DNA of 64,000 nucleotides from Candidatus Sulfomarinibacteraceae bacterium (GCA_963796455.1 CAWCLO010000006.1:229765-293764); one strand, 5' to 3'. Counted from the stretch's first letter, positions 32,801 through 64,000 are shown. Notes: generated by a model from the letters alone, not told the origin. Numbers and translations: made by a program.

Positions 32801-33412
32801 ATGACCGAATTCAAGCTCACCTACTTCGATTTTGACGGTGGCAGGGCGGAACCGATCCGGCTCGCATTTCATATCGGCGGCATCGATTTCGAGGACATCC
32901 GGCTGAAGTTTCCTGAGTTCGGCGAAGCGCGGTCGTCCTTTCGGTTCCGCGCTCTGCCGGTGCTCGATCTCGACGGCCAGCAGATCACCCAGTCGAACTC
33001 CATGCTTCGCTACGTGGGCAAGCCGGCTGGTCTCTACCCCACCGACGACCTGCAGGCCCTCTATTGCGACGAGACGATGGACGCGGTCGAAGACCTGAGC
33101 CACGAGATCGGCAAAACATTCGGTCTGAAAGACGACGAACTGAAACAGGCCCGTGAAAAGTTTGTTGAGGGCAAACTCACGACCTACATCAAGGGCCTCG
33201 ATGACCTTCTCACCCGCGGTGGCGGCCAGTTTTTTGCGGACGGAAAAATGACCGTCGCCGACCTCAAGGTCTTCGTCGAGACCCGGACTCTGGCCAAGGG
33301 CATCCTCGACCACGTCCCGACCGACATCGTCGAAAGTCTCGCACCGGCTCTGGTAGAGCACCGCGACCGCATCGCCAACGACCCGCGGGTGGTGGCCTAC
33401 TACTCCCGCTAG
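32801..33412 (+). CDS. Glutathione S-transferase
   Basis: AAGGAG RBS, an N-terminal thioredoxin-like domain (KLTYFDFDGGRAEPIRLAF...LPVLDLDGQQITQSNSMLRYV) and a helical C-terminal domain. Confidence 0.85.
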   Translation: MTEFKLTYFDFDGGRAEPIRLAFHIGGIDFEDIRLKFPEFGEARSSFRFRALPVLDLDGQQITQSNSMLRYVGKPAGLYPTDDLQALYCDETMDAVEDLSHEIGKTFGLKDDELKQAREKFVEGKLTTYIKGLDDLLTRGGGQFFADGKMTVADLKVFVETRTLAKGILDHVPTDIVESLAPALVEHRDRIANDPRVVAYYSR

Positions 33413-33482
33413 TGTGTGGCAACACTGACGACAACCTCACGTTGAGGCAACGCAAGGCGTGCCTCCGATGAACTATCGGAGG
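33413..33482 (+). repeat. Family-2 intergenic module (copy i), starting 1 nt after the GST stop
   Basis: GTGTGGCAACACTGACGACAACCTCACGTTGAGGCAACGCAAGGCGTG, then the perfect hairpin CCTCCGAT-GAACT-ATCGGAGG (33462..33482). Confidence 0.7.
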
Positions 33483-33501
33483 TGTGGGTCCCCCCTGCGC
33501 G

Positions 33502-34740
33502 TCACCTACCTGGAGGTGCAAACCGCCACACGTCGTTGTCGACGTTGAGGTAGTTGAAAGGGTCGAAAAAATTGAAGGTCTCGCGGTCGCCGCCAAAGGT
33601 CAGAATCGACGGTCGCCAGCCTCGCCCCGCACCCCACACGACGAGGGCATCGAAGTCGTACTTGATGTCTTCGGGTCCGTCGGCGTTCCAGGGCGAATCG
33701 CTGACCTGTTCCCAGTGCCTGCCATTCCTGCTGACCCAGACGTCCATCGGATTGGATGGCTTGAAAGGATCGGTCGGATCCGAGCTCAGACCAAAACCGC
33801 CAAACAGTACGATCTGGTTCAGCACCACCACCGCCTGGTGGCCCGGCCGGGCGGGCCACGGCGCGGCATCCGTCACCTGCTGCCAATGAGCACCGTCCCG
33901 CGAACGCCAGACGTCGTTGAAGTACGGCGGGCAACGATCACCGGATTCGCAGGTGAAACCGTCCTCGCCTCCGATCATGTAGAGATAACCGTTCTTCGAA
34001 ACTGCAATCCCCCCGGCACGCGGCGCCCATGGGGCTTGCTTGGTGACCTTGAACCAGCGGGCACCATCGTATGACTTCCAGACATCGTTGAAGTACTCAC
34101 GCGCAGGCTGTCCATCGACGATGGATGAGTCGTCGTTGAAGGACCCGCCCATCACGTATATCGCGCCGCGATGGACGACCGCCGAGAGGCCGGCCCGCCC
34201 CGCCCAGGGAGCGTTGCCGGTCATCTTGCGCCAATGGACGCCGTCACGGCTCCGCCACACATCGTTGAAAAACTCTGACTTCGGCACCTGTGCAGGGCAA
34301 TCCGGCACAAACGGAGGACACTCGTTATCGACGATGTTGAAATTCTGGCCGCCGAGGACATACATGTGACGCCCCTTCGTAACGGCTTGAAAATAGGCGC
34401 GCGCGGGCCAGTGGCTCTCATCGTCGGTGAACAGGATCGGGTCCCAGCTTTCGCCGAAATCGTCGCTCGCCCACACGTCACCCCAAATGATGCTCGCACC
34501 AGGGACAGGCACCTCGGCCGGGTCGAGCGGAGTGCGACCACCCATCACGTAGAGCCGCTTGCCCAGCTTCACCGCCTGAAGTCCGGCGCGGGGAGCCCAT
34601 TGGGCGGCGGGATTCTGAATGTCCCACTCCCACGATTCAATGTTGGAGATCCCCCAACCTTTTTCCTCCTGGGCTACTGCCGTCGAAGTTGTAACGAGAA
34701 TCAGAACAGCACCGAGAGTCAACAGAACTCGAAAACGCAT
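33502..34740 (-). CDS. Secreted Kelch-repeat beta-propeller protein
   Basis: Starts MRFRVLLTLGAVLILVTTSTAVA (internal ATG of ORF 33502..34863). It has repeated W.PRAG...V....LYV.GG and NDVW.S.DG..W units. Confidence 0.8.
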   Translation of the reverse strand: MRFRVLLTLGAVLILVTTSTAVAQEEKGWGISNIESWEWDIQNPAAQWAPRAGLQAVKLGKRLYVMGGRTPLDPAEVPVPGASIIWGDVWASDDFGESWDPILFTDDESHWPARAYFQAVTKGRHMYVLGGQNFNIVDNECPPFVPDCPAQVPKSEFFNDVWRSRDGVHWRKMTGNAPWAGRAGLSAVVHRGAIYVMGGSFNDDSSIVDGQPAREYFNDVWKSYDGARWFKVTKQAPWAPRAGGIAVSKNGYLYMIGGEDGFTCESGDRCPPYFNDVWRSRDGAHWQQVTDAAPWPARPGHQAVVVLNQIVLFGGFGLSSDPTDPFKPSNPMDVWVSRNGRHWEQVSDSPWNADGPEDIKYDFDALVVWGAGRGWRPSILTFGGDRETFNFFDPFNYLNVDNDVWRFAPPGR

Positions 34741-34814
34741 GGATATCCCCCACTTTTGTTTGTGTCGTGGGGCTAATCGTTCAATCTCGGCGAAAATTCC
34801 AGGAAAATGCCGCC

Positions 34815-34865
34815 GATCACAACTCACAATGAGGCACAACGAAATTACGAAACCACGGGCCATCC
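34815..34865 (+). repeat. Family-2 intergenic module (copy ii)
   Basis: GATCACAACTCACAATGAGGCACAACGAAATTACGAAACCACGGGCCATCC, between the divergent Kelch and DUF1330 genes. Confidence 0.6.
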
Positions 34866-34915
34866 AACGAATAAAGCGGCCTTACCATGTGTTGGATCAG
34901 CAAAAGGAGAAAACC

Positions 34916-35242
34916 ATGTCCGTCTACTTGATCGCTGATGTCACGGTCACGAATGACGAGTGGATTCCCGCCTACGCGGAAAAGGTCCACGATATCGTTC
35001 ACAAACATGGAGGCAAGTACCTTTCCCGCAGCGGAAACATCACGACCATCGAGGGCGAGGAACTCGGCTCGACGCTGATCGCGTTGTTGGAGTTTCCCTC
35101 GATGGATGCGGTGACCGCCTTTGCGGACGACCCGGCCTACGCGGAATACCGGCAAGCTCGTCAGGCCGGCACCATCAGCAGACTTCGTGTCATTGATGAG
35201 ACCGATTTGGCCGGCACGATCCCTTACCTTGAAAAGGGTTAG
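34916..35242 (+). CDS. DUF1330 domain-containing protein
   Basis: AAAAGGAGAA RBS; MSVYLIADVTVTNDEW...HGGKYLSRSGNITTIEGE...LLEFPSMDAVTAFADDPAYAEYRQAR. Confidence 0.85.
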   Translation: MSVYLIADVTVTNDEWIPAYAEKVHDIVHKHGGKYLSRSGNITTIEGEELGSTLIALLEFPSMDAVTAFADDPAYAEYRQARQAGTISRLRVIDETDLAGTIPYLEKG

Positions 35243-35337
35243 TCCGGCCGAGTGACCATCCGAACCATTGAGACCTCTCGTCCCGGTGAGCCTCCGAGCA
35301 AAGCCGGGATGCGGTTCGTTACCCTGTCATCTCGACT

Positions 35338-36129
35338 TCAGTCCACAGCTTTGAGAATGTAAATCGCCCACGGAGCGACACTTCGTTCGCTGACCCACGG
35401 GATACCGTCGTCGGCAGTGCCCAACGGCAGTTCAATCCGTTCGGTTTCGAGCCCGGCCCCCCGATAGACGGCGCGGTAATTCTCGTCCGTCCACAAGATA
35501 TCGTCCACCGGACGACCGTCGCTGTAGTCGGTGGTCACGATCCGCACCACGTCCCCGGGTCGTGCGTTTTTGTTTTCCGGATAGTCGCGAGTCGAAAACG
35601 TCACCCATTCGTGGGTGTAGATCTCCGGTGTGGAGACGATGTTGACCATCCGGCCGGTGGGCCGGAGCAGTCGCCTCAATCCCGTGAAAATCCGGACTCT
35701 GCGCTGGTGGTCCGGAATGTTGTCGAAGGTGAAGGCCGATTGAACGAGGTCATAGCCGAATTCCGGGAGCGACGAGAAATCTCCGTCTTCGATGACCTGG
35801 TAATCGCCTTCCGGGTCTCGATCAAGGGCTATGGCGACCATATCCGCGGAAATGTCCAGACCCAGCGTGTGGAAGCCGAGCTGCTTCAGAAAACGCGTCG
35901 ATCTCCCGGTGCCGCACCCGAAATCCACCGCCAGATTTCCGGTCACGTGCTCACTCAGTAGACCGGGGAGATCGCGGAACACGAGATGGTAGGTACCCCC
36001 CAACGCGAGCTCGTCATACGCCGCCGCCCGGCGAGCGTCCTCATAGGTATTGCGAAAATCCATATTGGCCCTCCCCGACTTCTCGGCTTCCAAAATGAAG
36101 GATGCCATGCGGTTTTTCAAGAGTGCCAC
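35338..36129 (-). CDS. Class I SAM-dependent methyltransferase
   Basis: Motif I VDFGCGTGRSTRFL and the post-I LGLDIS. The start could be the GTG at 36129 or the ATG at 36108. Confidence 0.85.
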   Translation of the reverse strand: MALLKNRMASFILEAEKSGRANMDFRNTYEDARRAAAYDELALGGTYHLVFRDLPGLLSEHVTGNLAVDFGCGTGRSTRFLKQLGFHTLGLDISADMVAIALDRDPEGDYQVIEDGDFSSLPEFGYDLVQSAFTFDNIPDHQRRVRIFTGLRRLLRPTGRMVNIVSTPEIYTHEWVTFSTRDYPENKNARPGDVVRIVTTDYSDGRPVDDILWTDENYRAVYRGAGLETERIELPLGTADDGIPWVSERSVAPWAIYILKAVD

Positions 36130-36156
36130 GCATCAAAAACACACAGTCGCGGCCAT

Positions 36157-36287
36157 TGATCACAACCTCACAACGAGGCAATGCGACGTGTGACACCTCC
36201 CCAGGGTGCCACATTCACAATTCCACAATTGTCAGTCAGTGGACCGATTGACGTTTATAAACCAACAAATTTGAATGTGGCACCCAT
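36157..36287 (+). repeat. Family-2 intergenic module (copy iii) plus a downstream GGCACCCAT box
   Basis: TGATCACAACCTCACAACGAGGCAATGCGACGTGTGACACCTCCCCAGGGTGCCACA (36157..36213; hairpin TGTGACACC/GGTGCCACA). An exact GGCACCCAT follows at 36279..36287. Confidence 0.75.
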
Positions 36288-36617
36288 CCACCTTTCCCCA
36301 ACAGTTGCCAGGTTCGGTTGTGTTGATGTTATGGATTTCTCACCGGTGGTGACGGTCTCTTCGTGTCGATACCCCGCACAGAGCATCCTGGTGTTCGTCG
36401 AATGATAGATAACCCGAGCAAAATCATCTATTTTGATGAGAAAATCCATTCGTTTGAACGATTGCATTAGCCCCGGTCGCGCCATATTGTGTTAAATGAG
36501 GGCGATTCGGTGGAATGGGGGGGCATCCTGTTCACCATCAAGTCCGGTTCTTTCCTTGTCACGATCGCTTTGGTGCTGAGTCGGTGTTTTTATGCTCTCA
36601 TCCCAGAATTCGACCAC

Positions 36618-39116: not shown

Positions 39117-39255
39117 GCGCGTTTAAACCCCGCGTTTTCAATCGGGCAAATTCAGGTCACGATTTGTTTTGGACAGCACTCGGAACTCATGGTGAATCGA
39201 GGGAACCCGCTAGATAGCTGAACCCGCGCTACTCTGATTCCGTGGAGTACGGGTC

Positions 39256-39632
39256 ATGAATCTCACGATCACCATTGACGAGGAGGTCCTTCGCCGGGCG
39301 CGGATCCGCGCCCTTCAGCAGGGCACATCGGTCAACGCTCTGCTTCGCGATTTCCTCGAAAGCTACGCCGGCTCGAACATCGAGGCGGAAGCGCGCCGTC
39401 TTCTCGCGAAAATGGCTCGTGAGTCGACTGCGTCGAGCGGCCCCGGCGGCAGAACATGGACCCGCAGCTGGTCACGCAGTCCATCGAAACCGCCCGCCGC
39501 TTCGACATCGCGATCTGGGACGCACTGATCATCGAGGCCGCGCGCGCGGCCGGCTGCACGACCGTGCTCAGCGAAGACCTCCAGGTGGGCCAGGATTTTG
39601 ACCGCGTGACAGTCGCGAATCCATTTGCGTGA
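39256..39632 (+). pseudogene. vapBC remnant: a copy of the 41098..41765 locus carrying a 291-bp internal deletion that fuses vapB to the 3' end of vapC out of frame
   Basis: The first ~70 codons are near-identical to VapB at 41098 (MNLTITIDEEVLRRARIRALQQGTSVNALL...). After GACCCGCA (39459..39466) the DNA continues as the vapC 3' end (DPQLVTQSIETARRFDIAIWDALIIEAARAAGCTTVLSEDLQ...ANPFA*, stop 39630..39632). Confidence 0.8.
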
Positions 39633-39875
39633 ATAGGCCTGTCGCGCGCACCGGGTGACACGTATCACGCCAGGGTGCCGCGGAGAGATTCGCACCTTCG
39701 TTAGGGGTGATACCCGTTATGTGGCAACCATGATCTCTCATTCTCATTGGTGCTATCCTGAAGCGCGTATCCATTGCGAATCGACAGTGAATCGGGGCTG
39801 CATGGCGGCCCGCGCCCGGCAGCCAATTCTTGAAATCCCGGGGAAGACCCGGCCCTGCAAAGGAGGACTCCACCA

Positions 39876-40319
39876 ATGTCTTTCAAGTCTCTGAACCGCT
39901 CGAGAAAACGCGCCTGGTCGACGACTCTCATTCTGGTGCCACTCCTGATGATCTGTCCAAACTTGGGCGCTGACGATCTTTCGTCAGAAATCAAAACGGT
40001 ACTGAAGGCAGAGCTCGAAAAAGAATTCGGCCCGCTCGAAGCCCAGATCATGGCCGACGACCAACAAATGTGGGGCCGGGTGATCTCTATCGACTATGAG
40101 CTCCCGGAAGGCACGCGGCTGGACGACACCTGGGGTGACAAAGTCGTCGCGGCCGCAGCCCGGTTGGGGATCACCGCGGAGGTCGACGGAAACGAGGTGC
40201 GGGCCGACGGGCAGACAATAGCCGGCAATGAAGCCTCCAGTATGCAGTTCACAACCGCCCGAAATCTCGACGATCCGGACGCCATCGCTTTCACGGCGAT
40301 GTTCACAGGGGGCGGTTGA
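39876..40319 (+). CDS. Hypothetical secreted protein
   Basis: AAAGGAGGA RBS and a signal-like N-terminus (KRAWSTTLILVPLLMICPNLGA). No family recognised. Confidence 0.5.
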   Translation: MSFKSLNRSRKRAWSTTLILVPLLMICPNLGADDLSSEIKTVLKAELEKEFGPLEAQIMADDQQMWGRVISIDYELPEGTRLDDTWGDKVVAAAARLGITAEVDGNEVRADGQTIAGNEASSMQFTTARNLDDPDAIAFTAMFTGGG

Positions 40320-40330
40320 CTTTCCGAGCG

Positions 40331-40382
40331 GGTGGCACTGAACCCAGTCTCACGATGAGGCAATGCGAAGTGTGGCGCCCAT
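40331..40382 (+). repeat. Family-2 intergenic module (copy iv, nearly full length)
   Basis: GGTGGCACTGAACCCAGTCTCACGATGAGGCAATGCGAAGTGTGGCGCCCAT, starting 12 nt after the stop of 39876..40319. Confidence 0.75.
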
Positions 40383-40453
40383 CTGATCGTTCAGCTGATC
40401 CAAGCGAATTTGCAGAGTGATTCGTGGGGCCCAAACCCGTCCACGCTGCCTTG

Positions 40454-40789
40454 TCAGGAGGCGCTCGGACAACCGGTAGCGACCGCGAGGGCCCTGCACA
40501 CCTCGTCCATGACATCTGCGCTGAGGTGGCCGATGAAACTGCACAACCGAGATCGATCGACGGTTTGAACGTGGTCCAGATTGACCGCAGAATCACGCTT
40601 CAACCCGTGCTCTATCCCGACCCGCACCTCGCTGGGAACCCCGTAAATCGCTGATGTGATCGGCGCCACCATCACCGTCCGCAGAAGCGGGATCACGCTC
40701 TGCCGGCTGATAACCAGCACCGGCCGCCTCTTGTCAGGTTTGGCGAAGTCGTAAATCCAGATGTCGCCGCGCTTCACTCTTCGGGCCAC
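40454..40789 (-). CDS. Type II toxin, MazF/PemK-family endoribonuclease
   Basis: VKRGDIWIYDFAKPDKRRPVLVISRQSVI...VAPITS matches the PemK/MazF pattern. Confidence 0.85.
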   Translation of the reverse strand: MARRVKRGDIWIYDFAKPDKRRPVLVISRQSVIPLLRTVMVAPITSAIYGVPSEVRVGIEHGLKRDSAVNLDHVQTVDRSRLCSFIGHLSADVMDEVCRALAVATGCPSAS

Positions 40790-41007: not shown

Positions 41008-41097
41008 GTTGATAATATATGTTGATATTTATGATGAATCAAGGCAAACGGTTGGATAATTGATCCCGTGCTACACTGATTCCGTGGAGCACGGTCT

Positions 41098-41364
41098 ATG
41101 AATCTCACCATCACCGTTGACGACGAGGTCCTTCGCCGAGCCCGGATCCGCGCCCTTCAGCAGGGCACATCGGTCAACGCTCTGCTTCGCGAGTTCCTCG
41201 AAAGCTACGCCGGCTCGAACATCGAGGCGGAAGCGCGGCGTCGCCTCGCGACATTGGCTCGTGAGTCAACCGCGTCGAGCGGCTCCGGCGGCAGAGCATG
41301 GACCCGCAACGACGTCTACAGCGACCGCTTCGATCACGATCAGTCGGTCCACGAATCAGAATGA
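41098..41364 (+). CDS. vapB: Type II antitoxin VapB (RHH-like)
   Basis: MNLTITVDDEVLRRARIRALQQGTSVNALLREFLESY; its stop overlaps the vapC ATG (ATGA at 41361..41364). Confidence 0.8.
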   Translation: MNLTITVDDEVLRRARIRALQQGTSVNALLREFLESYAGSNIEAEARRRLATLARESTASSGSGGRAWTRNDVYSDRFDHDQSVHESE

Positions 41365-41765
41365 GCTCTTTTGTCGACACCAATGTCGTGGTCTATGCCT
41401 TCGACCTTGCCGATCCGCCCAAACAGCGCGTTGCCATCGAGATCCTGGAAAAAGGCGACCGCCTCGTGCTCAGCACCCAGGTCCTGCTCGAAACATGGTG
41501 GGTGCTGACTCGTAGGCTCGCCAACCCACTTGAAGACTCCCAGGCATCGGAAGTTATCGATCGACTCAGTGAACTGCCGGTCGTTTCCACCGACCCGCAG
41601 CTGGTCACGCAGTCCATCGAAACCGCCCGCCGCTTCGATATCGCGATCTGGGACGCACTGATCATCGAGGCAGCCCGTGCGGCCGGTTGCACGACCGTGC
41701 TCAGCGAAGATCTCCAGGCGGGCCAGGATTTTGACGGCGTGACAGTGGCGAATCCATTCGTTTGA
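41361..41765 (+). CDS. vapC: Type II toxin VapC (PIN-domain ribonuclease)
   Basis: MSSFVDTNVVVYAFD..., ...STQVLLE..., ...DALIIEAA..., showing the acidic PIN residue pattern; this is the internal start of ORF 41298..41765. Confidence 0.85.
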   Translation: MSSFVDTNVVVYAFDLADPPKQRVAIEILEKGDRLVLSTQVLLETWWVLTRRLANPLEDSQASEVIDRLSELPVVSTDPQLVTQSIETARRFDIAIWDALIIEAARAAGCTTVLSEDLQAGQDFDGVTVANPFV

Positions 41766-41861
41766 ACCAGCCTGTCGCACGAACTGGATCACGTGCGCCA
41801 CGCCAAGGTGCTCCTGATGATGCGAGCTCCTGCGTGGTACGCTTTTCGGTAGGACCAATCG

Positions 41862-45022: not shown

Positions 45023-45027
45023 GCCAT

Positions 45028-45159
45028 CCTCACAATTGCCATCCAACTGCTCAGGCCCAAAACGGTCTTAGGAATTTCTCGCATGGGTGCATGGGTGCCA
45101 CTGATCACAACCTCACAATTGCCATTCACCTGCCAGGCCCAACGGTCTTTCGAATTTGC
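45028..45159 (+). repeat. Family-2-related tandem duplication (two units 83 bp apart) directly after the protease stop
   Basis: Unit 1 (45028..45078): CCTCACAATTGCCATCCAACTGCTCAGGCCCAAAACGGTCTTAGGAATTTC. Unit 2 (45111..45159): CCTCACAATTGCCATTCACCTGCCAGGCCCAACGGTCTTTCGAATTTGC. Between them lie ATGGGTGCC (45091..45099, the only inverted core box) and ACTGATCACAA. Confidence 0.75.
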
Positions 45160-45352: not shown

Positions 45353-45685
45353 ATGTTCAGCGCCAACCTGAAACGGGGCAGCATCGAACTGCTGATCCTC
45401 TCGACCTTGGAAAACCGGGTCCGACATGGCTATGAGATTGGGGAGCCGCCGGAGAAGCGCTCGTCGGGCCGGCTCGAGTTCCGGGTTTCCACTCTCTACA
45501 CCGCGCTTTATCGGATGGAGGAGCGTGGCTGGATCAAAGGCCGATGGGTCGAGAAGGCCCGTGAGCGGAGACGTTGTTACTACACGCTGACGCCGGCCGG
45601 CAAAAAGATTCTGGCCAGCCAAGAGAAGGGAGTGGAACAACTTTCGTCCACGATCAACCAGGTGATCGGGCTGAGCCATGCCTGA
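45353..45685 (+). CDS. PadR-family transcriptional regulator
   Basis: ATG at 45353 follows CTGGAGG. LKRGSIELLILSTLENRVRHGYEI...STLYTALYRMEERGWIKGRWVE...RRCYYTLTPAGKK is the PadR winged-helix pattern. Confidence 0.85.
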   Translation: MFSANLKRGSIELLILSTLENRVRHGYEIGEPPEKRSSGRLEFRVSTLYTALYRMEERGWIKGRWVEKARERRRCYYTLTPAGKKILASQEKGVEQLSSTINQVIGLSHA

Positions 45686-48381
45686 TCGAGCCCGCCACCG
45701 AGCCGTCCGAGAACTGGCCGATCACCTCGAAGACCTGTATCAAGAGGCGCTCGATCGGGGCGCCACCGATGACGAGGCCCAAGAGTATGTGGAAACAAAA
45801 CTGGGCGAGACCGCCGACACCGCCGCCGACGTCCTGACGGCGGCTCGGGAAAAACTCGGAAGCCGCCTTGGCAACTGGGCCGAGGGGCGCGAGGACAGCC
45901 TTCTGGGCTCGAACGCCTCTTTCGCCGCGGCGGCTGACCGGCTGCGCGAGCTTCGGTTGGCGGTGCGCTCGTTGATGAGACGACCCGCTTCTTTCTCCTG
46001 GTGGCCATGGTCTCCCTGACCATCGGCATCGGGGCCAACACGGCCATTTTTTCGCTGGTGAACGCCGTTTTCATCCGCCAGTTTCCTTACGAGAATTCCG
46101 AACAGTCCGTGCGGGTCTATACCGTGGTTCCAGAACCGCACCGACTACGGAACAAGCTCGTTCCCGAACTACCTGGACATCCGCGACTTTGACGGTCCTT
46201 TCCAGGCCTCGGGGCGTTTAAGACGGTACTTTCGCGGGTGGAGCTCCAGGACGAGACCGTCCGCATCATGGGTGAGGCGGTCTCCCAGACTCTCTTTCCC
46301 ATGCTGGGCGTGGACACCGCTATTGGTCGGTCATTCCTGCCAGAGGAGGAGAACCCGGCGCACACCCGGTGATGATGCTGGGGCACGGCTTCTGGCAGCG
46401 CACCTTCGCAGGCGACCCGGAGATCGTCGGCAAGACGATCCGTCTCGCGGGGAGGGAGCTTTACGGTTGTGGGTGTCACCCCGGAGGGCTTCCACGGGCT
46501 GACGGGCGCCGTGTTCCGCGGACTTCTTCGTCCCCCTGGTGATGTACCCAACGGTGTCCGGATCGTCGAACGACTCACACCTCGAGGACCGGCTCGACCG
46601 CAGGTACTTCGTGTTGGGCAGGGTCGCCGAGGGGGTGACGCTGGAGAGCATGCGGGCAGGTCTCGAGGTGCTCGCCAGCCGCATCCAAAAAGACAACCCC
46701 GACATCGATCAGGAGTGGATCTTCACGACCGTTCCCCTGGAGGACGTGGCTCTCGATCCGGAGTTCGACAGCGCCGTCAAGCCCTTTGCCATGCTCTTCA
46801 TGGCCGCCGGTGGTCTGGTCCTGCTCCTGGCTTGCACGAATCTGTCGTCATTCCTCCTGGCCCGAGGTGCGGAGCGCGAGAAGGAGATCGCACTCCGGCT
46901 CGCCATCGGCGCGCAACGCGGCGCACTGGTACGGCAGCTGCTCACCGAGACGATGCTCTTGGCGTTGCTGGGTGGGGCCTCGGGGCTCGTGGCTTCCCAA
47001 GGGCTGTTGAGCCTGCTCGCCCGTTACCAGCCCCCACTTCCGGTTCCCATCACCCTCGACCTGGGGTTGGACATGACGGTTCTCCTCTTCACCTTCGGGA
47101 TCTCGTGCCTGGCCGGTCTGCTCTTCGGCCTGGCACCGGCCCTGCGCAGCACCAGCCCCGATGTGCCTTCAGCCCTGAAGGAAGGCACGGCCGCGACTCG
47201 TCATCGACGTTTCGGTCTGCAGAACGGTCTCGTGGCTTTCCAGATGGAGCTGTCGGTCGTACTACTGATGGGAGGCGGCCTTTTCGTGCGCAGCCTGGCG
47301 GCAGCCGAAATGCGGACCTGGGTTTCTCCACCAGGAACGCGGAAATCGCCTGGTTGGATCTTTCGATCAGCGGCGTTCCGGCCGCCGAGCAGCTCGCCAT
47401 GCGGGATGAGCTGACTCGCCGGGCTCGCGCCCTACCCGGCATCGACAAGGCGACCTCTGCGTCGCACATCCCCTTCCTGTTCCCCGCCAGCGGCGGGTTC
47501 TCTCCATCCCAGGTGCTGATCCGCCGCCCCGGGGGTCCGGCCACAACGTGCAACGGGAGGAGGTTGACCCGGAGTTTTTCGCGACGATGGGGATCCCGGT
47601 GCTGGAGGGACGATCCTCACCAACGACGATCGCCCGGACACCCGTGCTGTCGCCATGGTGAACGAGACCGCCGCCAAACGCTTCTGGCCCGGAGGAACCC
47701 CCGTGGGCAGGCAATTCTCCCTACCTCGAATCCGAAAGCACGGTGCGGATCGTTGGTGTCGTCAAGGACACCAAGGTCGAGCGGCTCCGGGAACCAGCCA
47801 AACCGCTCTTCTACTTCCCCATCGCACAGAGCCCGGACTCGGACATCGTGCTGGTGGCCCGCAGCCCCGCGGCACCCGAGGAGATCACCGTGATGCTCAA
47901 AAAGGAGTCGATCCGGGAAGTGAGCCCGAGCCTGATGATCATGGATGCGAAGACGATGGAGGAAAACGTCGGCGTGATCCTGCTCCCGGGCCGCATTGCC
48001 GCCTTTCTCCTGGGTGTCTTCGGCCTGCTCGCGCTGACCCTCGCCTCCATCGGACTTTATGGCGTGGTCAGCTTCTCGGCTACCCGGCGCACCCGTGAGA
48101 TGGGCATCAGGATTTCCCTCGGGGCCGACGCACGGACACTGATCGCCATGATCCTGAGGAGCGCCATGGCCGTGGTGGGCATCGGGGGAATCGTCGGCCT
48201 CGCCACCGCTTTCGGCCTCGCCCAGCTCGTCCGGCACGTGCTGTACGGGGTGGGGCCTTTGGACCTCGCGACCATCCTCGGCGTGCCCTTTGTGCTCAGC
48301 TGCGTGGCTGCTGGAGCCGCTCTGATCCCTGCGCTCCGTGCGAGCCAGGTGGACCCGGTGAAGGCCCTGAAGTACGAGTAG
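45678..48381 (+). pseudogene. ADOP-family duplicated permease (PadR-linked), broken by at least eight frameshifts
   Basis: The ATG overlaps the padR stop. Recognisable ADOP blocks sit in alternating frames: ...RELRLAVRSLMRRPA / FFLLVAMVSLTIGIGANTAIFSLVNAVF / TSSFPNYLDIRDF / VELQDETVRIMGEAVSQTLFPMLGVD / PVMMLGHGFWQRTFAGDPEIVGKTIRL / FVPLVMYP...LLLACTNLSSFLLARGAEREKEIALRLAIGAQRG... / LGFSTRNAEIAWLDLS / VDPEFFATMGIPVLEGR / AVAMVNETAAKRFWPGG / VRIVGVVKDTK...TREMGIRISLGA...ASQVDPVKALKYE*. Confidence 0.8.
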
Positions 48382-48523
48382 GCGGAATAGCGTATTCGCG
48401 GCGATCTGAGGTTTGCTCACAGAGCATTCCACCAGGCCGTATCCGAAACCGCCGGTCGCCGGACCGTCTCGCTCAGAATGACAGGGTTCCGATCGGCACA
48501 TTGACATGTGAAATAATCCGTCG

Positions 48524-49710
48524 ATGCGAGTTTTGCGTGCCGTCGCCCTGATTGCCGTTCTGAGCGTTACGACATCGTGCGCCCGTGACCCGGACCCCAT
48601 GGGTCTGACCGACCGGGCGCTCGACGATGCCATCGCTGGAATCGAAGCGGGACACAGAACCACACCCGTCGTCGTACAACCGGCCCCCGGCTCGGACGCA
48701 ACGGTCACCTTCCTGGTCAAGAGCTCCAACGGTCCCGTACCCCGCATCGTCTCGGATGTCACTGGATGGGGCGAGAGCCCGGACGACAGCTTCTTCGACC
48801 AGTCCATCGGCACGATGACCCGATATCGCTTGACCGACTGGTACCGGCTCGAGACCCAAGTCGCCGCACGCTCCCGGATCGAGTACCTGGTCGTGCTCGG
48901 CGATACCGACTACCGGGTCGATCCAAACAACCCGCGACGGGCATGGTCGCGCGGCGGCCACGCCGTCTCCGAATTCGTGACCCCCGACCACGTGCCGCCG
49001 CCCGAGCTGACCGACCCTCCCGTGACACCTCACGGCAGAACGATCGAAGCGGCAATCGACAGCCGCGCACTCGGCGCGCCGCGCCGGTTGCTCGTCTGTC
49101 GCCTCCCGGTTACCGCGGCGACGGCGGCTACCCGGTCGCGGTGTTTCACGCCGGCCGGGGGGTGGCGCACGAAGGACAGGCAGCGCGCGTTCTCGATTGG
49201 ATCATCGCCCACGGGGAAATCGAACCGATCGTAGGCCTGTTCCTGGATTCGTACCTTCCAGGCGATCCCGACAACCACGAGGGGCCGCCTCTCCGCACAT
49301 TCCTGACCGAGGAGGCGCCGCGATGAGTTTGGCCCCGGGCTATGCCGTCTCAGCATCGGTGCGAGATGGGCTGTCCTCGCCATTTCCTACGCGCGAGAGG
49401 ATGCCCTCCATGCCGCCCTCTCCCCCACCCGGGCATTCGGACGACTCGGGCTGCTGATTCCGGGGCGACGGTTGACCTCCTCGAACATCGAGGAGTTTTC
49501 GCTCCAGCATGGGCATCGCCTCCAGATCGCCATCGTCGCAGGCCGCTACGACCAGGCCAACCTCCCCACGGCTCGAAACGCACAACGGGCACTTGCAGAC
49601 GCCGGCCACGCGTCGATTTCATCGAGATCCCAGAAGGCCACAACGCCACAACTTGGCGCAACCACCTTCGCGACGCGTTCGTCAGCCTCTTTGGTGGTCA
49701 CGACACCTGA
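48524..49710 (+). pseudogene. Secreted esterase (enterochelin-esterase/esterase-D-like fold), several frameshifts
   Basis: The lipoprotein-like signal MRVLRAVALIAVLSVTTSC and an N-terminal beta domain are in frame 1. PPGYRGDGGYPVAVFHAGRG...IVGLFLDSY is in frame 2. RAFGRLGLLIPG (in the frame of ORF 49472..49717) and VDFIEIPEGHNATTWRNHLRDAFVSLFGG (ORF 49342..49710) are in further frames. The family call is from motif memory only. Confidence 0.55.
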
Positions 49711-49752
49711 TCAATAACCAAGGCGCACGATAGGCCGCGCGATACACAGTAA

Positions 49753-49810
49753 CAATGGTGCAATGGTGAGGGTGGCACCCATCGAAAGGTGCCGCGCATC
49801 CGGCACCCAT
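49753..49810 (+). repeat. Family-2 intergenic module (copy viii) with two exact GGCACCCAT boxes
   Basis: CAATGGTGCAATGGTGAGGGTGGCACCCATCGAAAGGTGCCGCGCATCCGGCACCCAT. Boxes lie at 49774..49782 and 49802..49810, with the hairpin GGCACC-N8-GGTGCC. Confidence 0.75.
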
Positions 49811-52435: not shown

Positions 52436-52484
52436 CATCCCGAGACGTCCGTCCTCAAAGCGTCACGCGGCATCCATGAAAATT

Positions 52485-52528
52485 CAGCAATGCGGTATGT
52501 GGCACCAATGGCACCCATATACACCCAT
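52485..52528 (+). repeat. Family-2 intergenic module (copy ix)
   Basis: CAGCAATGCGGTATGTGGCACCAATGGCACCCATATACACCCAT, with the exact box at 52510..52518. Confidence 0.7.
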
Positions 52529-52541
52529 GTTTAACAACACA

Positions 52542-53793: not shown

Positions 53794-54028
53794 CAGTGTC
53801 TCCCTTGGTCTCGAGACAGCTCCCGTAATAGAACAGGCCGACATACGATGTCCAGCCCAGAAGGGTGACAATTCGAAGATATGGAATCTGGCACCCTCCA
53901 GAACCAATTGCGCTAGCTGCAATTTGGATGCCATAAACCCATGAGCGAATTGAGATCGCCTGGTGAGACAAGTCCATTTTTCGATCCAACCGAATCGCCA
54001 TCTGTCCCAGTTTGAAGCGAAACGGTGC

Positions 54029-54252
54029 CGATCTCATCCTCACAATGAGGTAATGCACATCGTGGTGTGCATGCCCGAACGAATCCGGGACGACGCATTG
54101 GGAAAGGAGGCACCAATCAAACCACCCATTCGGTTCCCTTAATGCGGAAGTGCGGCACCCATCACAGCGATCTGGGCACCCCTCGCTCAAACACCTGGAG
54201 GACGACCCCGGATTGCGAAGGGTGGCGCCCATGGCATACAAGAGGCACCCAT
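54029..54252 (+). repeat. Family-2 cluster (copy vi): one long module plus an array of GGCACCCAT-type boxes in the divergent promoter region
   Basis: CGATCTCATCCTCACAATGAGGTAATGCACATCGTGGTGTGCAT (hairpin ATGCACA/TGTGCAT). Boxes: GGCACCAAT 54109..54117, GGCACCCAT 54154..54162, GGCGCCCAT 54224..54232 (preceded by GGATTGCGAAGGGT) and GGCACCCAT 54244..54252. Confidence 0.75.
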
Positions 54253-54300
54253 GACCTGGTAAACTCACGGTCAAAAGAACAGAAAAAGGAGTCGACGACC

Positions 54301-56130: not shown

Positions 56131-56138
56131 CCGACGAT

Positions 56139-56250
56139 GCAGTGGCCCATGGTGTCACCCATGCACAAAGAATGAGTGATTGCGAAGGGTGGCACCCATG
56201 ATACCCATAGCCGAGGTAATCCGCAGTGTGGCTCCCAGGGGGTGCCAGTG
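56139..56250 (+). repeat. Family-2 modules (copy vii, two tandem cores) in the convergent gap
   Basis: GCAGTGGCCCATGGTGTCACCCAT, then AATGAGTGATTGCGAAGGGTGGCACCCATGATACCCAT (box 56191..56199), then CCGAGGTAATCCGCAGTGTGGCTCCCAGGGGGTGCCAGTG. Confidence 0.75.
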
Positions 56251-56256
56251 GGATTG

Positions 56257-57510
56257 CTACGGGCAGGTCGCGAATGCCGTTGTGTCGGTAATCGTATCTG
56301 CCGGATGACCTTCTTGGTTTGAATAGAGCCTTCTTGCACCGGTCTCGGTATCCGTCACAGTTACGTTGAACGCAACATTCGTGGTTGCCGCAAAAAAGAC
56401 CCAATAGTTATTATTCATCGGGCATCCATTGAGGACCTTGAGCAAGAATTCCAGATTGTTCGGGTTGCTGTAGTAAAACATCCCCGCATCAGCCGTTCGA
56501 AGACTCGACACAAACGCCGGTTTGAATGCGGTTTCCCCGCTGCCGTGCCACTCGATCTTGACCTCGAATCGATCCCCTTCTCCCAAGCATATCTCCCGGT
56601 CGGTGTTGACGCAGCTGCCGCCACTTGGGGGCTGGGACGCACCGTAGTCATCCCAAATTGTTCGGCATTCTGCGTGGCGGAACTCAGAATAGTCGGCGAA
56701 GAGCAATGAAAGATCGAAATTCGCGGTCTTGCCGATTCTCAATGCGGAATTGCTTCCGTCGATGTGCACTCCGTCGATGAACGTAAAAAATGCATCGAGG
56801 ATTTCGTTGTTTGCATCACTGACTGCACAGGCCACCCTTCCGAATTTCAGATCGGCGACACCGGTGTTTTTGACAACCCCGGACAAATCTACTTCCCCTT
56901 TATAGTCTTCGGAGGCCCAGGGCCCCTGCCACAGAACAAGGTTTGCATCAGGTGTCGCTGACGTGTAGGTCCTACTGTCAAAACTGTAGTAGACACCATC
57001 GGTATTGGTGGGAGTTTCGACATAGAAACTGAAAAACCCCGTCTCACCCGGTCGAAGGCAGGTGCCGGTCTCGATGTCCGACGATGTCATGGTCAGATTG
57101 GTACCGTATATGTAGGTGTAATCATTCTCAATGGCATTCCCCGAGGAGTCGCGAAGCTCTACCTCGAACTTGACGAACGAATACGTTCTTGATCCTACGT
57201 TCTTTACTCTTCCCATGTAGACAAACTTGTTGTCGTACGCATATCGGTAGAAGAGTTCATTTCCAACGAGTTCGAGAGATGTCGATTTCTCGGTTCCGGA
57301 GGGATGGCTCCCGTCGAATGGGATTTTTTCCCTGACCTTTTGGATGCGCTCGTTCCTCTTCAATAGTTCAACGTGTCTTTCAAGGTCGCTTCGGTCATCA
57401 AGGACTTTACTGGCTTTGACCTCTTTCAAGATGGCGACAGGATCAGAGGCCAGGAGGTTCCCGCAATAGCAAAAAACCACGGCGAGCATGACGAACGCTA
57501 TCTTTTTCAT
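56257..57510 (-). CDS. Secreted hypothetical protein in an AT-richer patch
   Basis: Starts MKKIAFVMLAVVFCYCGNLLA (internal ATG of ORF 56257..57540). The body is beta-rich, with a Cys-bounded C-terminal module ...RFEVKIEWHG...LEFLLKVLNGCPMNNNYWVFFAATTNVAFNVTVTDTETG...TTAFATCP*. Confidence 0.65.
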   Translation of the reverse strand: MKKIAFVMLAVVFCYCGNLLASDPVAILKEVKASKVLDDRSDLERHVELLKRNERIQKVREKIPFDGSHPSGTEKSTSLELVGNELFYRYAYDNKFVYMGRVKNVGSRTYSFVKFEVELRDSSGNAIENDYTYIYGTNLTMTSSDIETGTCLRPGETGFFSFYVETPTNTDGVYYSFDSRTYTSATPDANLVLWQGPWASEDYKGEVDLSGVVKNTGVADLKFGRVACAVSDANNEILDAFFTFIDGVHIDGSNSALRIGKTANFDLSLLFADYSEFRHAECRTIWDDYGASQPPSGGSCVNTDREICLGEGDRFEVKIEWHGSGETAFKPAFVSSLRTADAGMFYYSNPNNLEFLLKVLNGCPMNNNYWVFFAATTNVAFNVTVTDTETGARRLYSNQEGHPADTITDTTAFATCP

Positions 57511-57770
57511 GGTGTCTCCAAACTCGGTTAGTCCACGCAATCATTCGGAAAATCGTTTTTACTCAAAACCACCCTTGAGGCCTCTATGCCTTCCTGCCCT
57601 CTGTACGTTTTTCAAAGAATCTCTGCGGCAAGAAGACGTAAACCCGAACTCACCATTTCCCAAGAGCGCAACTTGCATGCCAGGGTTGAGACCAAGCAGC
57701 CACCGAGCGATTCGTTCCCGATGTCTCAAAACGCAGCAGATTAAGAAAACATGTCCCGTATTGGCTCGAT

Positions 57771-57815
57771 GTGGGTAGTGATCGCATGGATTGAATTGCG
57801 ATGGCTGGCACCCAT
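57771..57815 (+). repeat. Family-2 intergenic module (copy x, degenerate)
   Basis: GTGGGTAGTGATCGCATGGATTGAATTGCGATGGCTGGCACCCAT, with the exact box at 57807..57815. Confidence 0.6.
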
Positions 57816-57836
57816 AGGAGAATGTGCTGAGCATCC

Positions 57837-57888
57837 ATGTCATCCTGAGCGAAGGCACCATCCGATGGCTCCGCAGTCGAACGATCCG
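57837..57888 (+). repeat. Family-1 REP/MITE-like repeat, single copy
   Basis: ATGTCATCCTGAGCGAAGGCACCATCCGATGGCTCCGCAGTCGAACGATCC. Confidence 0.7.
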
Positions 57889-57987
57889 GGCAAGCCCCCC
57901 AAACACCTGGACGAGGACTCCGTATACTCGGTCAGCCCGCTGAGGTAATTGAATCTGATTGAGTGAATCGACCAAGGAGGATTGGTG

Positions 57988-61284
<3,297 letters not shown>

Positions 61285-61307
61285 GGACCTTCTTCATTCA
61301 ACCAAAC

Positions 61308-61335
61308 GCCGGCGGGACAACCCGCCGGCTTTTTT
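61308..61335 (+). terminator. Rho-independent terminator of the tricorn-like protease gene
   Basis: GCCGGCGGG-ACAA-CCCGCCGGC followed by TTTTTT, 24 nt after the stop. Confidence 0.9.
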
Positions 61336-61342
61336 GATTCCA

Positions 61343-61391
61343 GGTGGCCGGCACAAACCTCTCACGCGCCTTTCATCTGGGTGGCACCCAT
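61343..61391 (+). repeat. Family-2 intergenic module (copy xi)
   Basis: GGTGGCCGGCACAAACCTCTCACGCGCCTTTCATCTGGGTGGCACCCAT, with the exact box at 61383..61391, immediately after the terminator T-run. Confidence 0.65.
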
Positions 61392-61562
61392 CCACGATTG
61401 GCCAGGTGCTCATTTGACATTAACGCAAACGAGTCCTGAGTCTTAAAAAAACAGAAACTACATCGAAGAAACGTGAAGGGGGATCGCATCGCCAACGCGT
61501 CGGTGGCGCCCGCAGATACGGCGCCTCCGGTCCATTTCGAATACTGCCGAAAAGGTGGATAT

Positions 61563-63751
61563 ATGGCTTTTGAGCGAATCGATCGACCGCCACTCGAACA
61601 ACGAAGATATCTGCGGATTCGGCGATCGGTTGTGGCGCTCCTCATCCCGCTCTGCCTCGCAATGGCTCACACCGACCCAGTCGAAGCCTACGATGTCGAT
61701 CATTACTTTCTGACGTACTACCTCTCCTTGAGCGTTGGTTTCACCGCCCGCCAGTCGTACCAGATCGCAAGCGGCGCCATGGCCCTTGATTACGATCCGG
61801 ACACTGCCCCGCTGCCGACGACAAAAGCACAAAAGCTCGCCATTGCCCAGGGCACACCTCCCCCCCACATCGTCACCATCTGGCTCCGGTACCACGCATT
61901 CGACGACATCAATCTCCGTGATCTGGGGCGTGCCGAGGTCGAGCGGGCCAAGCAGGAGCAGAAAGACCGCCTTCGCGATCTCGGCGTCGCTCAAAAGAAC
62001 CCGGGACCGCTGCTCCACTATGTCCAGGATTATTATCCGCACTTCGGCTGGGAGAGCATGCGGGGTCACGTCTTTGCGGGCCACCTACCAGACTTTCTCG
62101 ACGACAGTCCTGAAATCGGCGCGGTGCGACCCTCGAATCCATCATGGAACTCACACGGTTTCGTACTGAAATGGGTGAACCTGCCCGGATCTATGACGTG
62201 AATCGGATCTTCGAAGTTCTCGAGGAGCTTTCAGCCGCCAATCCTATTCGGGACCACGTTCCCGCCAGCGCCGAAATTCGAGATCGATCGCCGGATGAAC
62301 TCGAATACAGCGAGCATCTGGTCAAAGACCTCACCAATCTTCTGATCGACGCCGCCAAGACGGGGATCGGTTGGCACGACGTTTTCCTCTTTGCCGTGAA
62401 AGAATACGGGTATTACCCGGACCTCTTCAACATCGCTTTGGATCTGGCCAAATCGCCAATTTCATTCAATTCCCACACGGTCATCAACAGAGCGATTGAT
62501 GAAGATGTCTACGCCGGCCGACTCCTGTGGCATCCGGAAAGAGACTGCGACTATCAGCTCCCAGTTGACTACATCGGCTACAACTACGACCGCGACGCGT
62601 GGGTCATCTCACCCGTATACCCGATCGAATCGGTTGCGTTCGAGTTCCTCGAACCGCGTGTGACATTCAGCGGTGCCCCCGGATCTTCTTCGGATGCACT
62701 GGTCGCCACGGTAGAGGCGCCGTACGAGCTTTCGGGCATTTTGCCGATACCAAACCTCGGGGGCCAGCTCTCAGTTCGCGAAACCTTCGAGATTACCAGG
62801 AATACCCAATACGGAGCACGACCGCCACCTCCGCGGAAACGGGTCTTTTTCGGCCCGGCGCCAGTACCGGAAAGCCCGTTCCGATTTCGAAGCCGGCATC
62901 AACGTTTCCGTCACCGTCCACGTGTGCGGATATTCTCCCCAGACGCAGGAGATTCTGGTTCAGGTGCCGCCGGAGGACGACCCGAGACTTGCCGAGAGCC
63001 AACCCTCCCCTACCACCACCGAAAACCCGCGCGGTTGGGATGACGCGGTCGCAGATGGGGAGCGGGAAACCGAATCTAACGCGAACGATCGTGGCTCATC
63101 CACCGCGGGGGCCGGATCTTCCGCTACGACCTCGCCCAGTGTCCCGATCGTACCGGAGGACAGTGTCGCAGACGCCGCTCGCCGAACCTCTGACCGTGTG
63201 CGGCAGGACCAGGAACGGGACCGCGAGGCAGCCGGTGATCTCGCCGATGCCCTCGGCGGTCTCAGCGACGCCCTTGGGGGTGGGTCACAACCTCCCGTTC
63301 GGGCCCCGGTCCAATCCGCCGGCGATCCGTTGCCCGGTGAAACGGGTATTCCTCAGGTGGCGGCACGCCTCAATCGGGCCAGCCGCGGCAACCAACCGGG
63401 AGTGGTGGCACCCAGCCACCGCCCACTGGATCACAGAATCAACCGCCGAGTGGAGGCAATGAGAGCGCCGGTTCGTGCGTCATCCAGGAGCTGCCGTTTG
63501 GAAAGGACGGGCATTTTCTCGTGCGCGCCGAAAGCGGATATTCGGGTGATGCAACGGCCTATCAGGTGTGGTCGGTCCCAGGCGAAAAAACCTTTGCCGA
63601 CGGCTCGGGGTGCCGGAGCGAACGATCGTGCCTCGATTTCTACATGCGCCAGACGGGTACGACTCAGCTCCGCACGACGGTGATGGGCTATCACCAGTCC
63701 AAATCGTCGGCCCTCAAAGCCGCTCGCAAGGCATGCCCGAGCGCCCGATGA
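61563..63751 (+). pseudogene. Secreted hypothetical protein (N-terminal region weakly reminiscent of Zn-dependent phospholipase C/P1-nuclease folds), reading frame broken several times
   Basis: MAFERIDRPPLEQRRYLRIRRSVVALLIPLCLAMAHT (signal), then ...LLHYVQDYYPHFGWE...GH. Sensible protein text switches frame near 62150 (to MELTRFRTEMGEPARIYD...), near 62810-62880 (to ...DFEAGINVSVTVHVCGYSPQTQEILVQVPPEDD...) and near 63350-63400 (to ...CVIQELPFGKDGHFLVRAESGYSGDATAYQVWSVPGEK...ACPSAR*, stop 63749..63751). It could instead be two or three separate genes. Confidence 0.4.
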
Positions 63752-63797
63752 AACGAGATGCAACGCGAAGACCATCCCTACACCGGAAGGAACGATC

Positions 63798-63953
63798 ATG
63801 AAGATTCGCTGCGCCATCGCCGCATGTGTCCTGTATCTCTTTTCCGCACCGCTCCCTTCGTTCGCGGACGAAGCCGACGCTATCCGCGACACTCTTCTGG
63901 GTCGAACCGCGATCTTCAAGATCGAAATGCCGGTCGTCAAAGGCTCCAACTGA
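63798..63953 (+). CDS. Small signal-peptide ORF, probably the 5' part of a longer gene running off the window
   Basis: MKIRCAIAACVLYLFSAPLPSFADEADAIRD... stops at 63951..63953. A neighbouring frame continues (LMPDGRLDEKTYYKRLK) to the window end. Confidence 0.35.
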   Translation: MKIRCAIAACVLYLFSAPLPSFADEADAIRDTLLGRTAIFKIEMPVVKGSN

Positions 63954-64000
63954 TGCCCGACGGCCGCCTCGACGAGAAAACCTATTACAAACGCCTCAAA

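Follow-up and report, generated by a model that had tools for sequence, protein, structure and literature searches.

Co-oriented intergenic repeats in a Candidatus Sulfomarinibacteraceae genome as probable orphan arms of TIRtrons

A mosaic region with repeats between its gene modules

The DNA analysed here, a stretch of 64,000 nucleotides from a Candidatus Sulfomarinibacteraceae bacterium (GCA_963796455.1, CAWCLO010000006.1:229765-293764; hereafter the window), holds in its right half an array of gene modules with short repeats between them. In related genomes the same repeats end the genes of TIRYTs, transposases of the class associated with repetitive extragenic palindromes (REPs). The window is acidobacterial, as indicated by an Acido-Lenti-1 RNA and by its best relatives, which among the matches listed lie in Ca. 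Sulfomarinibacteraceae. PALP and DUF4388 genes adjoin the array on its left. Pfam searches confirmed GST, Kelch, DUF1330, methyltransferase, propeller, RHH plus PIN (twice), PemK plus RHH, M4 protease, PadR, FtsX (fragments in two frames), FG-GAP, beta-lactamase plus DUF3471 and tricorn, showing that the gene list of an earlier reading, made from the sequence alone (the sequence-only reading), was essentially right. The toxin-antitoxin modules and decayed genes noticed by that reading do lie in the array (PemK-RHH, RHH-PIN twice, and the decayed genes), and the base composition is patchy as it had described, with a GC content per module of 0.51 to 0.635.

The same-direction repeats between the gene modules are real and far above chance. 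The family is spread over ~15 intergenic clusters, from ~30.2 kb to the right edge of the window. An nhmmer profile built from five long copies matched 30229-30334, 32640-32741, 33395-33503, 36126-36233 and 40309-40414, all five on the + strand (E 1e-16 to 1e-20; cores at 30257, 32664, 33423, 36154 and 40336), with partial matches at 45091 and 54030. With at most one mismatch, the 11-mer GTGGCACCCAT has 15 matches on the + strand and a single one on the - strand. Every one of the 16 is intergenic and within 29-64 kb, though the intergenic share of that interval is 17%. A control scan of 849 kb of unrelated loci under the same rule gave 11 matches, both strands summed. The 9-mer GGCACCCAT is the most over-represented of the window (10 on +, 1 on -), and the 3' half of the repeat, ATTGCGAAGGGTGGCACCCAT, is found at 40361, 54211, 56178 and 57794. 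The left 29 kb of the window contain none of these repeats by the GTGGCACCCAT scan, and no integrase; a weak repeat-like copy at 29112 is probably just the start codon region of the PALP gene.

The repeats are confined to intergenic DNA of the mosaic region, which starts right after the conserved backbone gene DUF4388. The array had been thought to begin at ~33.4 kb; it does run to the right edge, but its start lies further left, where the copies at 30257 and 32664 are clear. Nearly every module boundary had been described as carrying a cluster, but the ~15 clusters are present in only about half of the intergenic regions of the array. They occupy tandem, convergent and divergent intergenic regions alike and are therefore not promoters of the downstream genes. 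The placement of the repeat right after stops held at each position proposed: 33413, 40331, 45028, 56139 and 61343 all fall in repeat sequence that directly follows a stop codon or terminator. The orientation, described earlier as uniform, is nearly so for GTGGCACCCAT (15:1), but reversed arms occur at 36204-36233 and 45089-45119, and the doublets have a reversed left half.

Inverted copies of the repeat bracket TIRYT genes in relatives

A 19-nt degenerate pattern was scanned against species-representative genomes and gave at least 120 loci (L001-L120), about half of which are estimated, from the degeneracy of the pattern and the size of the collection, to be chance matches in coding DNA. Among the matches listed, a coherent set lies in Sulfomarinibacteraceae, other Thermoanaerobaculia and Holophagae, together with a few bins labelled Methylomirabilota, Acidimicrobiia and Deltaproteobacteria. 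A PF01797 gene, or a 40-codon fragment of one, starts ~85 nt downstream of the reverse-complemented unit in L098, L016, L108 and L007. In L125, L126 (two genes) and L127-129 the element ATGGGTGCCACCCTTCGCATT.ACTCA.T.TTGC, which is the reverse complement of the window's repeat, lies ~75 nt before the ATG of a TIRYT gene, and the repeat itself, AACAATGAGTGATTGCGAAGGGTGGCACC, overlaps the stop codon of that gene. Since inverted copies of the repeat bracket the TIRYT genes, the window repeat is the terminal inverted repeat (TIR) of a TIRYT gene. Arms of the U type, the W type and related types (described below) stand at the TIRYT gene ends of these loci and of L098, and the arms of the window match them. 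The sequence-only reading had offered a different, undescribed recombination system as a fallback; this came close, in that the repeats end the gene of an HUH Y1 transposase, of a kind already described but barely studied.

The full-length homologues have 328-335 aa, and 629 proteins are found at E < 1e-30, many of them named RayT by JGI. They match PF01797 and NCBIfam NF047646 REP_Tyr_transpos (80.6-85.7 bits, cut-off 80), and their sole sequence match in the PDB is 4ER8, TnpA-REP. The motifs NH[YF]H, WQ and Y[IV]HLNP agree with the table for subclass 2.1 in PMC6006769. Judged from these matches, the layout would be a Y1 nuclease domain followed by a tail resembling the helix-turn-helix (HTH) of DnaA domain IV, the tail scoring 28.4 bits against Bac_DnaA_C, below the cut-off of 31.5. 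The model NF033573 transpos_IS200 gave no match to the four ~330-aa TIRYTs tested; it matched only a separate 177-aa classical RAYT of L122, with 24.7 bits against a cut-off of 55.

The TIRtron is a single-gene element whose product is such a ~330-aa REP-associated transposase of the HUH Y1 type (TIRYT; RAYT group 1, subclass 2.1). Quentin et al. 2018 (PMC6006769) equated subclass 2.1 with the TIRYTs and TIRtrons of PMC3733652, and their summary table labels the subclass '2.1 (1)', that is, RAYT Group 1 of Bertels et al. 2017 (PMC5581495). Among the TIRYTs, Di Nocera et al. 2013 (PMC3733652) had noted a clearly delimited acidobacterial group, and they described TIR copies dispersed as singles, dimers and clusters. 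Among the relatives of the window, 5'-truncated and 3'-truncated TIRtron fragments are scattered as well. One stretch of L126 (3685-11010) contains two intact TIRYT paralogues (72% nt identity) and a 5' fragment within 7 kb, each with its own 8-mer subfamily.

Anatomy of the arms

Each arm consists of two tandem 8-nt repeats, 2-4 nt and a conserved tip, GTGGCACCC. Arms of the left-end type carry an extra AT(G) after the tip, and right ends run on as T(G/A/T). Across six TIRtrons (L125/L127, L126a, L126b, L108, L060 and L122) the 8-mers vary and the tip is kept, reading CTGGCAC in L108, L060 and L122; the 8-mers co-vary with the transposase paralogue that they flank. The tandem pair is CAATGAGT / CAATGCGA in U, CAATGGTG twice in W, ATCAACAA / ATGTGAAC in L126b, ATCGTCTGA twice in L108, AACTCCGT twice in L060 and ATAACATC / ATAAGTGG in L122. 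To our knowledge, an arm of two tandem 8-mers that co-vary with the paralogue has not been described for TIRYTs.

With a hidden Markov model of the arms (arm HMM), the subfamilies U, W, V and an AATTGTGR type are distinguished in the window. The single repeat family of the sequence-only reading is thus real but composite, each unit being built from two tandem 8-mers plus the tip, in several subfamilies. The V 8-mers, GTTGTGAG GTTGTGAT, appear as their complement at 45089-45119 and within the long forms. A long form measures ~55 nt and is an inverted V'-U doublet of two different arms, both of them ends, with no interior. The polarity is identical in all six doublets of the window. Single arms, doublets and extra tips are all that the window holds (Table 1). 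The relatives' units have the consensus GCAACAATGAGTCAATGCGAAGGGTGGCACCCAT and often occur as inverted pairs ~45 nt apart; doublets of the form U'-spacer-U, with a spacer of ~45 nt, were found in nine relatives, including L016, L061, L104 and L050.

Table 1. Arms, arm clusters and the shared tricorn module in the window (positions counted from the first nucleotide of the window)
Position	Strand	Feature	Evidence
30248..30300	+	degenerate arm doublet, V'-type left arm joined to U-type right arm; begins at DUF4388 stop codon; first clear unit of the array	nhmmer E 1.5e-17; sequence reading
32655..32710	+	arm doublet upstream of GST gene	nhmmer E 5e-19
33413..33466	+	arm doublet 1 nt past GST stop, between convergent genes	nhmmer E 1.6e-16
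36145..36197	+	arm doublet between divergent methyltransferase and propeller genes	nhmmer E 1.9e-18; arm HMM
36204..36233	-	opposite-orientation arm, AATTGTGR-type subfamily: AATTGTGG AATTGTGA AT GTGGCACCC	arm HMM E 0.005
36261..36288	+	single arm, exact GTGGCACCCAT tip	arm HMM E 0.0014
40326..40384	+	arm doublet after small open reading frame, between convergent genes; its U arm is the closest match to the relatives' consensus	nhmmer E 1.8e-20; seed HMM E 5e-9
45028..45155	.	cluster after M4 protease; V' arm cluster has a 95% identical copy at L130 7143-7179	scans, arm HMM
45089..45119	-	left-end-type V' arm within the 45028..45155 cluster, ATGGGTGCCAC TG ATCACAAC CTCACAA, flanked by a duplicated 45-nt segment	
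49746..49810	+	W-type arm at 49746-49783 (CAATGGTG CAATGGTG AGG GTGGCACCCAT) and, 28 nt further on, another tip; TIRYT genes of L127/L129 are flanked by arms of this type	arm HMM E 1.3e-6
52467..52518	+	one arm with two additional tips, immediately 3' of reversed FG-GAP gene	scans, arm HMM
54030..54253	+	cluster between FG-GAP and beta-lactamase-like genes: U 5' half 54030-54064; tips 54107, 54152, 54242; U 3' half 54210-54233	nhmmer, scans, arm HMM
56152..56238	+	cluster ~20 nt past beta-lactamase-like stop: best U arm of the window at 56165-56200 plus two degenerate tips; 88-97% matches to L108, L051, L098	arm HMM E 1.4e-7
57799..57815	+	U 3' half upstream of tricorn gene, followed by unrelated REP-like insert 57838-57890	
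57899..61334	+	tricorn module (5' untranslated region, gene, terminator)	only stretch common to window and close relative L130
61345..61392	+	doublet-like unit directly after tricorn terminator, exact tip at 61381	scans, arm HMM
63404..63414	+	isolated tip GTGGCACCCAG in decayed right-hand region, weak	11-mer scan

Homology breakpoints at arm tips

The tricorn module is 91% (aa) and 89% (nt) identical in L130, where it lies beside GH95 and IS110; in the window its neighbours are a hypothetical gene and a PLC-like remnant. On the L130 side, the homology follows the arm tip GTGACACCCAT at a distance of 0 nt; it stops at window position 61334, and in both genomes an arm unit begins there, past the terminator. 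In arm-free relatives (78% nt identity) the order RND-tricorn-OmpW is conserved. Elsewhere among the arm-bearing loci, the shared DNA never exceeds the size of a single gene and is non-syntenic: a DUF5916 gene of L125 and L126 (97.6% nt), which lies next to TIRYT genes of only 72% identity, a gene for a 353-aa membrane protein in L014 and L061 (98% nt), a glyoxalase gene in L042 and L130 (89% nt), PemK in L036 and L130 (84% nt) and an S15 peptidase gene in L061 and L125 (92% nt).

Of 41 internal ends of high-scoring segment pairs, 26 fall at most 100 nt from an arm, where 4.7 are expected at random and 13 was the maximum in 2000 trials. At closer range, the DUF5916 junction in L126 (7481|7482) comes directly after ...GTGGCACCCTAG. 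The glyoxalase segment has its right-end junction 0 nt from a tip and its left end inside a tip, and the right-end junction of PemK lies at the outer tip in both genomes. The tricorn left-end junction is 0 nt, an L095/L125 junction 3 nt and the S15 junction 4 nt from a tip, and the L014/L061 junction lies inside one. On these alignments, the arm tips appear to behave as seams between DNA of different ancestry. Among the loci compared there is no pair of a filled and an empty site with both flanks collinear. The sequence-only reading had proposed to look for variation of modules at the repeats; as far as the loci compared go, single-gene segments were indeed found in different contexts with breakpoints at tips, where the TIRYT may have made the joints or the arms may only mark hot spots.

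Mis-assembly at repeats is unlikely as the cause of the junctions, because the arms, at most ~55 nt, are shorter than the 141-nt k-mer implied by the 'k141' names of several comparison contigs; some other comparison loci appear to be long-read assemblies, as judged from contig naming. Two further comparisons concerned more distant relatives. The DUF4388 orthologue loci of L122 and L123 (59-63% identity) have no arms and are too distant for a comparison of synteny. A metagenome scan with the tricorn protein gave mostly relatives of at most 69% identity, with arm counts at background.

Other observations concern the comparison loci themselves. In L130 an IS110-family transposase (13886-15151) lies just beyond the arm that follows the tricorn terminator; elements of the IS110 family, such as ISPpu9, target REPs. 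In one metagenome-assembled genome (MAG), three contigs (L047, L091 and L099) share a segment of more than 1 kb, 97-98% identical, that ends in a U arm with a duplicated tip, which suggests a multi-copy element larger than an arm. The arm family also occurs in bins of other phyla (L029 and L119, Methylomirabilota; L061, Acidimicrobiia; L110, Deltaproteobacteria), reflecting either mis-binning or cross-phylum transfer; L061 holds single-gene segments 98% and 92% identical to loci of the Sulfomarinibacteraceae type.

Probable orphan TIRtron arms, and the alternatives

We consider it likely that the repeats of the window are orphan terminal-repeat arms of TIRtrons and that their tips are the seams at which foreign or relocated modules are joined. 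In the mechanism that we propose, the HTH tail of the TIRYT would read the 8-mer pair, the Y1 domain would nick at the conserved tip, and arms, as miniature elements, would be copied in trans. The seams where foreign or relocated gene modules meet would result from cleavage and joining at their tips. The arms of relatives are also locally co-oriented (13:1 in L016, 15:1 in L051, 9:2 in L125, 20:8 in L126), those of L130 change orientation within 23 kb, and the window lies within one GC-skew regime. As the most economical explanation of the strand bias we tentatively adopt a single-strand, replication-fork-coupled reaction, as for IS608 and ISDra2, in which insertion into the lagging-strand template leads to a replichore-wide orientation bias (Ton-Hoang 2010, as relayed in PMC3333891).

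Several points weigh against this interpretation. The nick site of the TIRYT, the strandedness of its substrate and the target of its HTH are all inferred. A tblastn search detected no TIRYT gene or fragment in the 64-kb window, and a cognate enzyme in the window's genome is assumed. By cumulative GC skew the + strand is C-rich, by gene orientation bias it would be the leading strand, and the two disagree. The comparison loci are mostly MAG or metagenome contigs. Finally, breakpoints in any intergenic region would explain much of the enrichment within 100 nt, which alone is weak evidence because arms occupy about half of the intergenic regions; only the coincidences at 0-4 nt, about eight junctions, exceed the intergenic null.

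A more far-reaching proposal, which we put forward tentatively as a possibility, is that the arm arrays are working sites of gene capture by an HUH nuclease, the TIRYT cutting the tips and joining single-gene modules in one orientation. If so, exchangeable modules would accumulate at a backbone site (in the window, the one downstream of DUF4388) into a polar array resembling an integron, and these modules would be shared horizontally among Sulfomarinibacteraceae and neighbouring lineages.

The repeats might instead be passive and selfish, inserted in the manner of REPs or miniature inverted-repeat transposable elements into tolerant intergenic DNA, while ordinary horizontal gene transfer, insertion sequence (IS) activity and homologous recombination produced the mosaic; breakpoints and arms would then coincide merely through a shared preference for intergenic DNA. 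Classical REPs act this way, an intergenic breakpoint will often fall near an arm when arms are so frequent, and an IS110 element and another REP-like family are present in the same regions. We nevertheless regard this explanation as rather unlikely, in view of the eight junctions inside a tip or 0-4 nt from one, with PemK at a tip in both genomes, and of the filled and empty sites with collinear flanks that it leads one to expect and that were not found. The arms are, moreover, absent from the syntenic backbone half of the window, whereas GTAG REPs are reported to be confined to core regions in two species (PMC3733652).

A role as protein-binding or regulatory sites, that is, iteron-like arrays to which an HTH protein, such as a domesticated TIRYT, binds and which serve as insulators, terminators or nucleoid-organising sites, seems improbable. 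Tips do occur in tandem, up to seven in 130 nt (L051), the GGGTG-N-CACCC core is palindromic and would suit a dimeric binder of double-stranded DNA, the transposase has a DnaA-like HTH tail, and RAYTs are regarded as domesticated (PMC5581495). However, the orientation of the arms is independent of the neighbouring genes, with convergent, divergent and tandem gaps all used, many arm subfamilies stand side by side, and the scattered truncated TIRtron fragments of relatives resemble transposon decay rather than a conserved regulon.

The integron-like array, or cluster of attC sites lacking an integrase (CALIN), raised by the sequence-only reading, with the repeats as attC sites and IntI outside the window, is scarcely tenable. 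The likeness is considerable: co-oriented units lie between modules of which many are single genes, with toxin-antitoxin pairs (PemK-RHH, two RHH-PIN) and decayed genes among them, modules are reordered in relatives, and the spacing of 0.6-1.9 kb in L016 is that of cassettes. Yet searches of the window and of ~30 related loci of 8-21 kb revealed no tyrosine recombinase, and the left end of the array, where intI would be expected for + strand cassettes, holds PALP and DUF4388. Pfam searches of all long open reading frames from 13.5 to 63 kb detected no integrase, and phmmer with XerD against every open reading frame of at least 100 aa in the window and L001-L120 gave tyrosine recombinase matches in L064 alone, which is an unrelated chance locus from Chitinophaga. 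An attC site is an imperfect palindrome of 57-141 nt that carries the R'' (RYYYAAC) and R' (GTTRRRY) sequences, L boxes and extrahelical bases. No conserved AAC/GTT pair is present in the consensus of 94 arms, and a crude R''/L''-L'/R' scanner run over 29-64 kb on both strands gave 0 sites, which bears out the earlier remark that intI and canonical R''/R' cores are missing from the window. The proposed attC-like bulged hairpins were not seen either: DNA folds of six units on both strands had z-scores from -2.7 to +1.8 and no common hairpin. The same sequence is demonstrably the terminal repeat of a gene for an HUH transposase, not of a tyrosine recombinase.

Four further candidates were rejected. 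A sigma-54 promoter reading of TGGCAC failed by eye, no copy having a -12 TTGC element at the right spacing. With only 29-120 codons in the open reading frames upstream, the repeat is not the 3' end of a protein-coding gene either; its likeness to one (...NNASMRRVAP*) comes from the overlap of the right arm with the TIRYT stop codon. The C-terminus of the DUF4388 protein bears no relation to the repeat, which speaks against tandem integration at the 3' end of its gene, and no tRNA lies in the window to provide tRNA or tmRNA att sites.

Relation to known repeat systems

The repeats form a new, very dense family of the known but barely studied TIRYT/TIRtron kind. In common with the published TIRtrons (PMC3733652) are the RAYT-type motifs, the long protein with a C-terminal HTH extension similar to Bac_DnaA_C, the gene flanked by terminal inverted repeats rather than by GTAG hairpins and the dispersal of TIR copies; an acidobacterial subgroup was already among them. 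The published TIR motif GGGGWSAS, however, does not fit the tip found here, (G)GGTG[G/C]CAC(CC). Also different are the very high copy density (~15 clusters in 35 kb of the window, 28 arms in 21 kb of L126), the local co-orientation, the confinement to a mosaic region and the tips at homology breakpoints. The repeats adjoin the genes here, whereas none were found close to subclass 2.1 genes by Quentin et al. (PMC6006769).

REPs, BIMEs and REPINs with their RAYT (4ER8) involve the same enzyme superfamily and are likewise short, extragenic, high-copy and lineage-specific, with a gene bracketed by inverted copies; inverted doublets such as U'-45 nt-U also recall REPINs. The arms, in contrast, are direct 8-mer repeats rather than hairpins and have no GTAG or CGTC tag, single arms are co-oriented rather than alternating, and there are several paralogous transposases per locus. 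HUH chemistry is shared with IS200/IS605 (IS608, ISDra2) and with IS91/ISCR elements. ISCR elements capture adjacent genes by one-ended rolling-circle transposition. The ~150-aa TnpA of IS200/IS605 goes with subterminal hairpins, guide sequences and a tetra- or pentanucleotide target, whereas the elements here end in inverted repeats with tandem 8-mers, and their enzyme is RAYT-like, twice that size and has an added HTH.

Group 1 RAYTs, the TIRYTs, are the largest RAYT group. The lineage studied here offers a clear case, with abundant arms, a readable anatomy and tips that coincide with seams of a gene mosaic, and the paralogue-specific 8-mer pair and the conserved tip lead to direct hypotheses for binding by the DnaA-like HTH and cutting by the Y1 domain. 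Should the coincidence of tips and seams be the work of the enzyme, modular arrays like those of integrons would have a second origin, by an unrelated mechanism. Otherwise the locus still serves as a caution that co-oriented repeats between cassettes with toxin-antitoxin modules can mimic a CALIN.

Other features of the window and of a related locus

Within the array, the vapBC locus (FitA-like RHH plus PIN) is duplicated, at 39189-39678 and 41031-41811 (88-89% identity), and the first copy breaks off after the antitoxin. Downstream of padR, over 45678-49234, an FtsX/ADOP-like permease lies in pieces in at least two reading frames, as would fit a pseudogene.

A second, unrelated repeat family, GTCATCCTGAGCGRAG...CGCAGTCGAAsGATC, occurs at 2007-2039, 14743-14769, 15040-15177, 27727-27759, 27967-28020 and 57838-57890. 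The Acido-Lenti-1 RNA (RF01687, 47.5 bits) lies between two of its copies, at 14824-14870, and no other known RNA family was detected in an Rfam scan of the window at gathering thresholds. The copy at 57838-57890 is wedged between the TIRYT arm and the tricorn 5' untranslated region, and units resembling this family follow the tricorn terminator in the arm-free L131 and L136. In L122, the classical 177-aa RAYT (12190-13040) is flanked by GTAG-tagged hairpin REPs and lies ~1.4 kb downstream of the DUF4388 orthologue, the backbone position at which the array of the window begins.

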